Position numbers: made by a program. Shown here one piece after another: positions 24,601 to 27,600 of a DNA stretch of 64,000 nucleotides. Every line of letters starts with the position of its first letter. Positions within the stretch are counted from its first letter, which is position 1. The DNA is from Escherichia coli (GTDB lineage: Bacteria; Pseudomonadota; Gammaproteobacteria; Enterobacterales; Enterobacteriaceae), in the NCBI RefSeq assembly GCF_016903815.1, contig NZ_CP069973.1; one strand, 5' to 3'.

Positions 24601-27600
24601 AATAATTGATGATGACGGGATGTGCATCTGTAATGCTTTTGTTGAAATGTTATGATAAAAAAGAACTTTTTCATAACATTAAAATGTAATTTATCTAATC
24701 GTTTTTAATAATAAGTGTTGTATTTCTATCCTTGTATCAGCTATTTGATATGTAGTGTTTGTTCATGTTATGTGGAGCTTTACACCATAGCCAGTTTATT
24801 TATACTTTATTCGTCAGCCTGAACAACTGGCATCTGCTGCACTGCGCCATCGAGAGATTGAGAAATGGCGCATATACAACTGGTCAAACAAACCTCTTCT
24901 GGACTACTTCTCCCGGCGACGCCGGAGAGTTGCGATTTTTTGCATCAAATCAAAATAGGCGAGTGGATACACGCAGACTTTAAGCGTGTGCGTAACTACG
25001 CATTCCACAAGCGTTTTTTCAAACTCCTGCAACTGGGATTCGATTACTGGACTCCGGTCGGTGGGGCGATCACGCCTCGCGAACGAAAGCTGGTTTCAGG
25101 ATTCGTTGATTACCTATGTGAATCAGTAGGCCGGGAACATACGCCAGCTCTGAGCGAAGCCGCAGAGCAATATCTGAATACAGTTGCGACACGCAGAACC
25201 CGGGATACGGCATTGCTAAAGTCGTTTGAGGCTTTCCGCGAGTGGGTAACCATTCAGGCCGGATTTTACACCGAGCATCTTTATCCTGATGGTAGCCATG
25301 GGCGTCGGGCGAAATCCATCGCTTTTGCGAATATGGACGAAACCGAGTTTCAGCAGGTTTATAAATCTGTTCTGAATGTGCTGTGGAACTGGATTCTGTT
25401 CCGTAAATTTTCCTCTCCGGAACAAGTCGAAAATGTGACCGCGCAGCTGCTGGAGTTTGCGTAATGGTGGATTTACGTAAAGCGGCGCGGGGGCAGATGT
25501 GCACCGTCAGAATTCCTGGCTACTGCAATCACGATCCGGAAACGTCTGTGCTGGCGCATTACCGACTGGCGGGAACGTGCGGAACAGCGACAAAACCACA
25601 CGATATGCAGGCGGCGATTGCCTGTAGCTCATGCCACGATCTAATCGACGGGCGGGTAAAAACCAGCGATTACACCAAAGAAGAATTACGCCTGATGCAT
25701 GCAGAAGGTGTTTTTCGCACACAAGAAATCTGGAGAAAGGAGGGATATTTGTGATTTACCCAACGAATACAGGAAAAAGCGGAGAACACCTTCGTCTCGC
25801 CACGCTGGAAAGTGTCTGGATTCAGGGCAAACTGCGTATGTGGGGGCGCTGGTCGTATATTGGCGGTGGCAGGTCAGGAAATATGTTCAATCAGTTGTTG
25901 GCATCCAAAAAATTGACGAAAACAGCCATCAATGAAGCCCTGCGCAGAATGAAAAAAGCGGGAATAGAGAAAGCTGAGCTGGAAGCGTTTTTGCGAGAGA
26001 TGATCAACGGCAAGCAAAAGAGCTGGCTGGCGCATTGTACTGATGCAGAGGCGTTATGTATTGATCGAGTCATAAGTGAGGTGCTGGCAGAGCATCCTGG
26101 ATTGATTAGTGTCCTCCGGCAACGGTATGAAGGACGGGGGATGACTAAGCGCAAAATGGCTGAATTGCTAAATGATGCACATCCTGAGTGGTGTTTTAGC
26201 ACATGCGAAAAGCGAATTGCTAATTGGTTGGCTGTTGCTGAGTATGCCCTATATATTCCCATGCGAGAATCATTTGCTCAAAAAATAGCTTGATTTTTTA
26301 CGCATAAACTGCTTCAATTCCGGTATGCTTCGCAAAGCTGTATCGCGAGGCGAACCAAGCGCATGAACTTTACCAGAACCCGCCATTGAGCGGGTTTTGT
26401 TGTTTCTGGTACTGGTGAACCTGATGTTTCATTTCTGGAGCGCGATTCCTGGCGGAATACCTAGAATCGAGACATTCTGGTAAAATTGTTTTCAGTACAG
26501 GATGTGGAGGTGAGATGAGAGAACTACCTAAAGATTATTTTTTAGGAGTAGATGATGAGCTCGTCGATTATCTTGAAAAACAAGGGGAAGAGACGATACG
26601 AGAGATTCATCTTTCTAACAAAACCAATGTTGAGAATGGATACAAACTTCTGAACATTCAGATTGTTGGAATTGGTTCATCTTTTTTATTGCTGACACAG
26701 AAAACTAATTTCGATTTTCTCACCGCCGGAATTACCACATTTACATTACTATGGACATGGTGCGCCATTTACTTGGTATGTACTGGTTTATCTGTGAAGG
26801 TTAGGGGCCTGATCAATGCCCCTCCTGATCATCTATATCATGAAAAATATAAGGATATGGAGCCCTCGAGCTTTAAAATATTCGCTGATGCAGGATATTT
26901 AGGACCTGATAAGTTATTGCCGCTTATACGAAGGTATCGCCTTGTTGACTTGAGTGATACAGCAAGAGAGTTACTGTTGGAAAATGAGAAAATCCGCACG
27001 AGTCTCGATAAAGCAAGGATGTATACCATCCTTGCTCCGGTAGCGGCGATGTTTATCTCGGCTGTTTTTTTATATGTTCAATGACTGAGTCGGCAGAATC
27101 TCCAACAAAAACACGACGTGTAGCAAAGTCTGTAGTACTTTGTGTTGGAGTTGGTTTTGGTGCCACGGGTTGCTGAGGTTTATTTTCACCTTGTGGTTTG
27201 TTTTTTTCAGACATAAAAATCCTCTTTGTTTGAATTGTTACTTTTGGCGATTTAACGATATCAAACACGAGTATATACCGCCAGAAGCTTAATCTGGCAC
27301 TCCATCTGGCCCCGGCATGTCCCGGGGCTTTTTCGTTGTTAGGCTCTGGAAACATCCTCGACTTCTTGTTAGCAAGCCTGAGAGCCTGAATCTTACACTT
27401 AGCACCATCCGAACTCTCGGAGGTGAGGCTTATGAAAATGCACAATGCCCCTCATTCCTGGCCTGACTTACTGGAACTCTTACAAAGTTGGTGGCGTGGA
27501 GATACGCCGCTGGGTGCAGTGGTTATGTCAATTATTATGGCTGGTTTGCGCATTGCCTATTTTGGCGGTGGCGGCGGCTGGAAACGAAAAACGCTTGAGA

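Follow-up and report, generated by a model that had tools for sequence, protein, structure and literature searches.

The slot between the late antiterminator gene Q and the holin gene of lambdoid phages carries Shiga toxin (Stx) and other conversion genes, which makes conserved cargo in it worth knowing. What does an Escherichia coli prophage hold there, and what could this cargo do? The question was addressed in a stretch of 64,000 nucleotides (nt) of E. coli contig NZ_CP069973.1 (assembly GCF_016903815.1), called the window, to which all positions refer unless another locus is named. Its Q-to-holin slot contains a gene for a membrane protein of 189 amino acids (aa), here called ORF189 after its open reading frame (ORF), and a small convergent gene for a 53-aa protein. 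An initial annotation, made from the sequence alone, had described a cargo cassette with a candidate exclusion or abortive-infection factor. The cassette is a mobile two-gene unit whose genes form an obligate, co-inherited pair, and we tentatively favor the reading that ORF189 is a membrane-permeabilising effector restrained by its small partner.

A mobile cassette between Q and the holin

The cassette occupies positions ~26410-27417, between the terminator of the Q gene and the lambda-type holin gene. In about 1200 other E. coli genomes with the same Q, homology to the window ends at 26398-26409, the common part being only 26293-26409, and on the other side homology to other prophages with a related holin begins only at ~27418, just before the holin start. 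Because the flanking homology stops sharply at ~26409 and ~27418, the cassette is an insert in a variable slot, as the initial annotation had claimed. Of the complete E. coli genomes searched (5426), 1444 matched the 60-117 nt that follow Q up to the terminator, and only 222 had at least 80% of the region. A more sensitive search with the genes alone found both of them in 238 of the 5426 genomes (4.4%), many of which come from human isolates; nearly all alleles in these genomes are at least 99% identical, and about ten are 60-80% identical. In PEC148, related flanks enclose ~350 nt with no annotated gene, and the cassette is absent. The guanine-cytosine (GC) content of the insert is 0.37-0.43 against 0.45-0.54 in the flanks, and its description as AT-rich therefore holds in direction, but only modestly in degree. 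With its presence/absence polymorphism, defined boundaries, own terminator and deviant GC content, the cassette is a mobile two-gene moron, that is, a cargo unit of the Q-to-holin slot.

The cassette resembles the late-region morons of lambdoid phages (Stx in 933W between Q and S; bor and lom in lambda) in being a gene-plus-terminator unit between conserved late genes, in its presence/absence polymorphism and deviant base composition, and in occupying the same Q-tR'-to-S slot as stx. The likeness to Stx phages extends to a Serratia relative, in which genes for tRNA-Met and tRNA-Gly lie between Q and the cassette (L002, 4406-4559). Unlike these morons, however, its cargo is unrelated to the toxins, Bor and Lom, and consists of a convergent two-gene unit with overlapping 3' ends.

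Read from the Q side, a tR'-like terminator stands in front of the cassette and is followed by a -10-like element, the 189-aa gene (plus strand), the convergent 53-aa gene (minus strand), a conserved non-coding block and a plus-strand terminator. A terminator scan placed the stem of the tR'-like intrinsic terminator at 26374-26399 on the plus strand, with a T-tract to ~26409 (-18 kcal/mol, z = -3.2), and that of the intrinsic terminator closing the cassette, also on the plus strand and ahead of the holin, at 27308-27329, with a T-run to 27339. Both terminators had been proposed initially, at 26378-26405 and 27309-27333, and are present with these adjusted limits. The segment 27262-27345, which contains the hairpin at 27308 and another at 27279-27299, folds with -28.5 kcal/mol (z = -2.6). 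In alignments of 23-27 diverse alleles, on which all comparisons of non-coding DNA are based, a GC stem followed by a T-run is found at the position of the closing terminator in most alleles.

The same alignments revealed two conserved elements upstream of the genes. The first, ATTC(T/A)GGTAAAAT (26474-26486, plus strand), contains the -10-like TAAAAT (26481-26486) 29 nt upstream of the ORF189 ATG; it is conserved in most of 27 alleles, 30-45 nt before the ATG of the large gene and always just downstream of the terminator. The second, the TGATATCGTTAAATCGCCAAAAGTAAC block (27237-27263, minus strand), comprises an extended -10-like TGnTATCGT plus a leader for the small gene, and lies 25-50 nt before the small-gene ATG. 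It is the best-conserved DNA of the cassette, nearly invariant even where the proteins are only 50-60% identical; within it, the -10-like sequence putatively assigned to the small gene is TGATATCGT. From their sequence and position, the TAAAAT and TGnTATCGT motifs may be the cassette's own promoters. No minus-strand terminator was found after the small gene, and none between the two genes; the small-gene transcript should therefore run antisense into the large gene. Conversely, the transcript of the large gene must span the whole small gene, because the next plus-strand terminator sits at 27308.

Upstream of the small gene lies an inverted repeat, GCCAGA-N7-TCTGGC (27279-27299), at a place where some alleles have a different palindrome. 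RNAalifold predicted no pairs and no consensus RNA structure in the allele alignment upstream of the small gene, and the palindrome was dropped as an RNA element for this want of conserved pairing. Its resemblance to a lambda operator half-site was set aside as probably due to chance, given that the immunity regions differ among the prophages with the cassette. A search of 25500-28000 against Rfam (E ≤ 1) gave no match, and no tRNA gene was found in 25000-29000.

An obligate pair of convergent genes

Both ORFs are real genes. ORF189 (26515-27084, plus strand) is preceded by a GGAGG Shine-Dalgarno sequence at 26506-26510 and belongs to phrog_11870 (unknown function); a library of 1.8 billion representative proteins contains about 100 clusters (50% identity) of its relatives, which are spread throughout Enterobacterales and almost always have exactly 189 aa. 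The small gene (27053-27214, minus strand) has an AAGAGGA Shine-Dalgarno sequence at 27220-27226, belongs to phrog_14506 (unknown function) and overlaps the 3' end of ORF189 by 32 nt (27053-27084). RefSeq lists both products as 'hypothetical protein'. The evidence that they are genes consists, for ORF189, in its many relatives of the same length and, for the small ORF, in its presence in all loci examined and in a low ratio of nonsynonymous to synonymous substitutions (dN/dS) in its own frame: outside the overlap the ratio is 0.05-0.27 (median 0.11), as compared with more than 1 in the shifted frame. A chance ORF or annotation artefact is thereby ruled out, and both coding regions stand as initially called, including the strong Shine-Dalgarno sequence of the Pro/Gln-rich 53-aa ORF.

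The 53-aa protein is basic (isoelectric point 9.7) and rich in Pro, Gln and Lys. Its family shares an MS(E/Q)xNKP start, a Pro/Gln/Lys-rich spacer, the motif DF-x3-R-h-h-VG(D/N)SA(D/E) and a basic tail. The start annotated by RefSeq/PGAP is a GTG at 27268, which gives a protein of 71 aa and crosses the conserved non-coding block; ATG 27214 (53 aa) is the preferable start, given the sequence pattern shared by the family and the strong Shine-Dalgarno sequence. An A7 tract at the start of the small ORF was considered as a phase-variable site and ruled out, as the run is absent from other alleles.

To what extent the two genes belong together was assessed at 87 loci, a set made up of 80 viral-contig loci, six loci of Serratia and Pantoea genomes and one of an E. 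coli genome. A convergent small ORF overlapping the large gene by 20-35 nt was present in 87/87, although frameshifted in two. Relatives with 27-30% identity (L091, L092) keep a convergent, overlapping small ORF of the 'MSN...K...P-rich' type, and so does a Pandoraea homologue that is only 18% identical (L088). The pairwise divergence of the two proteins is correlated (r = 0.90), a value reached by none of 2000 permutations in a Mantel test. Locus L076 shares the flanks of the window (to 26409 and from 27218, at 91-95% identity) yet carries a different internal allele of both genes, with a large protein 58% identical; because it joins the same flanks to a diverged allele of both genes, the pair has been exchanged as a block. 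The genes form an obligate pair, which is inherited as one unit. The initial annotation had rightly recognised the convergent ORF but understated it as a neighbour, as it is the invariant partner of the 189-aa gene.

The pair is found in prophages of Escherichia, Klebsiella, Citrobacter, Salmonella, Serratia, Pantoea, Proteus, Providencia, Morganella and Yersinia. In most loci, including those of Serratia, Pantoea and Klebsiella-like hosts, it shares the orientation of the late operon and is flanked by Q and the holin. Its neighbours vary: three Q families occur beside it (DUF1133/phrog_753, PF06530 and PF03589/phrog_127), together with holins of the lambda S, Phage_holin_3_1, phrog_20 and phrog_1350 families and with endolysins that are either lysozymes or GH19 enzymes. 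An anti-repressor or another regulator takes the upstream place in some loci. Two distant relatives are placed elsewhere. In L088 the pair is inside a Mu-like tail module, and in L092 (~24% identity; 36-2699 of that locus) it adjoins a CI/Cro immunity region. The small gene of L092 follows two S24-peptidase repressor-like genes in the same direction, a layout that recalls lambda cI-rexAB and suggests that the small gene is expressed in the lysogen. The pair is thus independent of the surrounding phage functions and not tied to lysis genes.

An effector-like fold and its possible functions

ORF189 has a strongly hydrophobic segment at residues ~167-189, and residues 45-92 form a moderately hydrophobic, Gly/Ser-rich hairpin, whose first membrane helix bears a near-invariant GIGSS motif in the family alignment. 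The initially predicted transmembrane (TM) helices are therefore clear for the C-terminal segment and less so for the hairpin. An AlphaFold2 model, with a mean predicted local distance difference test score (pLDDT) of 81.5, consists of three long helices (14-62, 68-92 and 134-188). The acidic N-terminal helix and the basic region 93-167 would lie on the same side of the membrane, because two membrane-spanning helices lie between them, and the abundance of Lys and Arg past the second helix suggests that this side is the cytoplasm.

When this model was compared with AFDB50 by Foldseek, family members came first and were followed by proteins annotated as SLATT ('SMODS and SLOG-associating 2TM effector'), eight of which were among the top 50 matches (ranks 9, 11, 13, 23, 26, 30, 32 and 46). 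The best of them had template modelling scores (TM-scores) of 0.75-0.88 with E = 2e-5 to 1e-4, the top one reaching 0.82/0.86 at E = 2e-5, and the lower-ranked ones fell to a TM-score of 0.63 (E = 1e-2), all in a comparison of a predicted structure with predicted structures only. Four proteins in the same top-50 list are annotated as holins ('Holin-X', 'phage holin family', '3TM holin'; TM-score 0.70-0.79, E = 3e-4 to 1e-2), and one poor match in AFDB50 is a Pycsar effector. From the sequence side, two distant members gave weak PADLOC matches, to a CBASS '2TM effector' (E = 0.002) and to PycTM (E = 0.016).

SLATT proteins are predicted to be pore-forming or membrane-permeability suicide effectors of antiviral systems (PMC9503650; PMC12483538; bioRxiv 10.1101/2020.05.25.114553). 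Like those of CBASS-like, TIR, DRT9/DRT10 and retron-like systems, ORF189 is of similar size (~160-200 aa), has a predicted topology of an N-terminal helix, a two-helix membrane hairpin and a C-terminal helix, and is found on mobile elements and prophages. It differs from them in having an additional C-terminal hydrophobic segment and an invariant convergent Pro-rich partner of 42-64 aa (35 aa in the most distant relative), in lacking a profile match and in having no cyclase, SLOG, TIR or reverse transcriptase beside the pair.

The effector-like fold, the apparent signals for Q-independent expression, the independence from lysis families and the sporadic, allelically diverse distribution together lead us to favor, tentatively, a membrane-permeabilising effector that is restrained by its small partner and serves phage exclusion or abortive infection in the lysogen. 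In this mechanism ORF189 would be an inner-membrane protein with an acidic cytoplasmic N-terminal helix, a Gly/Ser-rich two-helix hairpin, a cytoplasmic linker and a C-terminal helix containing the third hydrophobic segment, and would most likely, judging from its fold only, oligomerise and permeabilise or depolarise the membrane. The partner would be a cytoplasmic, largely disordered, basic protein whose RRVFVGDSAD motif may dock on the conserved ORF189 segment just after the second membrane helix. A second restraint could come from its transcript, which should run wholly antisense to the 3' portion of the ORF189 message, since the convergent overlap is conserved and the genes are not separated by a terminator. 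Each gene would be transcribed in the lysogen from a promoter of its own, within the bracketing terminators, and the partner would dominate. Release of ORF189 might be triggered by loss of a labile partner once a superinfecting phage shuts off host expression, or by Q-antiterminated late transcription sweeping over the cassette; the membrane potential would then collapse and the lysogen population be protected. A more specific proposal, which we hold to be rather unlikely, is a minimal two-component immunity module, a sensor-less SLATT-like pore gated by a tiny disordered protein and by head-on antisense transcription, in which the ratio of the convergent transcripts would itself sense host shut-off or Q-type antitermination by an invading or awakening phage.

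Several observations weigh against this assignment of an effector role. A three-helix membrane fold is simple, and holin-annotated proteins are among the matches as well; a Foldseek search of the Protein Data Bank (PDB) with the ORF189 model returned generic BAR-like helical bundles only (E > 0.2), and the viral structure library BFVD gave no match to it. The structure prediction and fold search suggested in the initial annotation thus produced SLATT-annotated matches in AFDB50, but nothing specific in these two libraries. Neither protein matched Pfam (E ≤ 10), NCBIfam (E ≤ 1) or PADLOC-DB 2.0 (E ≤ 1), in agreement with the earlier remark that no known family is apparent from sequence, and the defence-database check proposed alongside it came back empty; PDB sequence profiles gave noise only, for example GpsB at E = 0.1. 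Searches of 64 distant members against Pfam (E ≤ 0.1) and of ten distant members against NCBIfam yielded no SLATT match, and database searches with an alignment of distant relatives (A2) and with the Pandoraea member returned no SLATT-annotated or Pfam-annotated relative. No nucleotide-signalling or sensor enzyme (SMODS/CD-NTase, SLOG, TIR or reverse transcriptase) was found in the window, in L002-L007 or in L088-L092. Because the sequence-profile test failed and the associated signalling enzymes are absent, we liken ORF189 to SLATT or 2TM effectors by its predicted fold and do not file it as a member of the SLATT family. The initially proposed exclusion or abortive-infection role accordingly gains a fold match, but neither sequence membership nor a defence-database match.

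Other points against it concern expression and restraint. Of the promoter-gene-terminator architecture claimed initially, the terminator is present, but the promoter amounts to the conserved -10-like motifs, neither of which was called by a consensus promoter scan. A late or lysis function would agree just as well with the co-orientation with the late operon and the usual place immediately before the holin; embedded in this way, the large gene would be expressed by a Q-modified polymerase just before the holin. As to the partner, natural 1-nt indels in homopolymer runs occur in some E. coli genomes and viral contigs: a T7-to-T6 change in codons 3-5 of the small ORF (27201-27207 of the window) coexists with an intact ORF189 in L095, and the small ORF is likewise frameshifted beside an intact ORF189 in L013 and L024; in L096, a G is deleted in the overlap (~27064) and both C-termini are altered. 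L095 and L096 are the two that were inspected among 4 of 30 evenly spaced rows of the E. coli prevalence search with a match one base shorter. These variants indicate either that the small protein is not essential as an antidote, in which case an antisense RNA would survive, or homopolymer sequencing errors. On the supporting side, docking of the small protein on ORF189 was modelled with AlphaFold as a fusion through a (GGGGS)6 linker, with 27 natural pairs in a paired alignment. This model has just two beta strands, residues 96-98 of ORF189, just past the second membrane helix and beside the near-invariant R97, and residues 36-38 of the small protein (VFV of the conserved motif). The motif region has a pLDDT of 60-66 as compared with 34-41 in the linker, and region 91-110 of ORF189 gains 8-9 points over the solo model, values which give only a weak hint of docking, as the chains were tethered and the 27-sequence alignment is shallow.

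The chief rival explanation is that ORF189 is an accessory of lysis timing: a late holin- or antiholin-like protein made from the Q-antiterminated transcript and silenced by the small gene in the lysogen, which would tune the timing of permeabilisation or prevent leaky lethality. The position of most pairs directly between Q and the holin agrees with it, strong late transcription would override convergent antisense transcription, and the 'Holin-X', 'phage holin family' and '3TM holin' proteins among the fold matches recall class I-III holins and antiholins, which like ORF189 are small helical membrane proteins near lysis genes. Nevertheless, we regard it as somewhat unlikely. ORF189 has no match to a holin family in PHROG or Pfam; homology to a lysis regulator or structural gene, the finding that according to the initial annotation would speak against an exclusion factor, is likewise missing at the sequence level, but holin-annotated proteins appear among the weaker fold matches, and a lysis-related role stands as a rival. 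A genuine lambda-family holin and the full holin-endolysin-Rz/Rz1 set follow the cassette, which is neither required by nor tied to the type of lysis cassette and is absent from most prophages with the same Q and holin. The pair is tied to no holin or endolysin family, its distant relatives sit in immunity or tail regions, and only Q-independent expression would require a terminator before the holin together with a promoter-like element after tR'.

The convergent overlap, which is conserved and uninterrupted by a terminator, could also belong to a selfish toxin-antitoxin (addiction) module, in which ORF189 would be a membrane toxin and the small gene its antidote, acting through an antisense RNA (type I-like), a protein (type II-like) or both, and stabilising the prophage or the cassette with neither an antiviral nor a lysis role. 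The pair does move as a unit, its partner is small, disordered and basic with a modelled hint of binding, and the same prophage has other such morons, ralR and Hok/Gef. A precedent for the protein antidote is SpoIISA-SpoIISB of Bacillus subtilis, a three-TM toxin neutralised by a ~56-aa intrinsically disordered protein that binds its cytoplasmic part; the logic is the one proposed here for the pair, to which it has no sequence relationship. SpoIISA-SpoIISB is, however, a co-directional, chromosomal system of a Gram-positive organism whose toxin has a large cytoplasmic GAF-like domain. Type I systems share the antisense overlap, but their hydrophobic toxins have fewer than 60 aa, far less than the 189-aa membrane protein, and the small gene product here is hydrophilic. 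The genes are convergent in every locus rather than co-directional as in typical type II operons, no toxin-antitoxin family in Pfam or NCBIfam was matched, a frameshifted small ORF coexists with an intact ORF189 (which an RNA antidote would survive), and amino-acid-level purifying selection on the small protein argues that RNA alone is not the whole story; we consider an addiction module improbable. A role in superinfection exclusion that the cell survives, with ORF189 in the inner membrane blocking the entry of incoming phage DNA (cf. P22 SieA and T4 Imm) and the small protein as cofactor or regulator, appears more improbable still. A membrane protein on a moron that is putatively expressed in the lysogen, with a sporadic and allelically diverse distribution, would be typical of exclusion genes, but the fold matches point to permeabilising effectors and not to known injection blockers, an elaborate restraint by antisense RNA and partner is hard to explain for a harmless protein, and the prophage already has sieB, no Sie/Imm family being matched in Pfam. 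SieB of P22 and lambda, in work attributed to Ranade and Poteete in 1993, is said to be a prophage membrane protein of ~190 aa that aborts superinfecting phages and is controlled by a small protein inhibitor (Esc) and an antisense RNA (sas). The control logic of the present pair is alike, although neither protein has a SieB match in Pfam. Esc is an in-frame truncation of SieB, which is encoded in the early-left operon, unlike the partner described here, a separate convergent gene.

Prophage context and implications

According to the annotation of the window, the whole prophage (9610-55304) is an intact, full-length Rac-family element integrated beside ttcA, a full-length relative of the cryptic Rac prophage of K-12. 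Its genes include intR, xisR, ralR, recET, kilR, sieB (16280-16768), ydaT, ydaV, a Q-like gene, holin, endolysin, Rz/Rz1, trkG and the head and tail genes. The left neighbour of the cassette, outside its limits, is the Q-like late antiterminator gene (25751-26293, plus strand; DUF1133 in RefSeq; phrog_753 'anti-termination protein Q-like', E = 2e-78), and the right neighbour, likewise outside, is the gene of the lambda-family holin (27432-27773, plus strand; annotated in RefSeq; phrog_126, E = 8.5e-39), with which the complete holin-endolysin-Rz/Rz1 set begins.

Right behind Rz/Rz1, trkG (28852-30309, GC content 0.29-0.37) forms a second moron, and a ParB/Srx-like gene and the terminase come next. 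The nin-like region contains a Hok/Gef-family toxin gene (23448-23573) and a convergent DUF1971 gene (23656-23997, minus strand), and an AT-rich stretch at ~24500-24800 (GC content ~0.30) precedes the DUF1367, DUF1364 and Q genes; 23448-23997 together with 24500-24800 is likely another cargo spot of the same prophage. The chromosomal flank upstream of the prophage (1103-2558 and 3396-5405) carries a frameshifted DHA2 efflux permease pseudogene and an IS1 that truncates dgcM.

Despite its wide spread, the pair is annotated only as 'hypothetical protein', and we found no description of it in the literature. It can be classed as a putative membrane-effector module of prophages, not characterised so far and marked by its small convergent partner, and is a good though unproven candidate for a part in phage exclusion or in the control of lysis. 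Should a role in defence or exclusion prove true, the catalogue of such systems would gain a compact membrane effector that works with no sensor, the SLATT-like effector fold would be known from a stand-alone setting under a new type of regulator, and gene regulation by convergent overlap would have a tractable example; should the pair instead tune lysis, the best-studied lysis pathway would have a new accessory.

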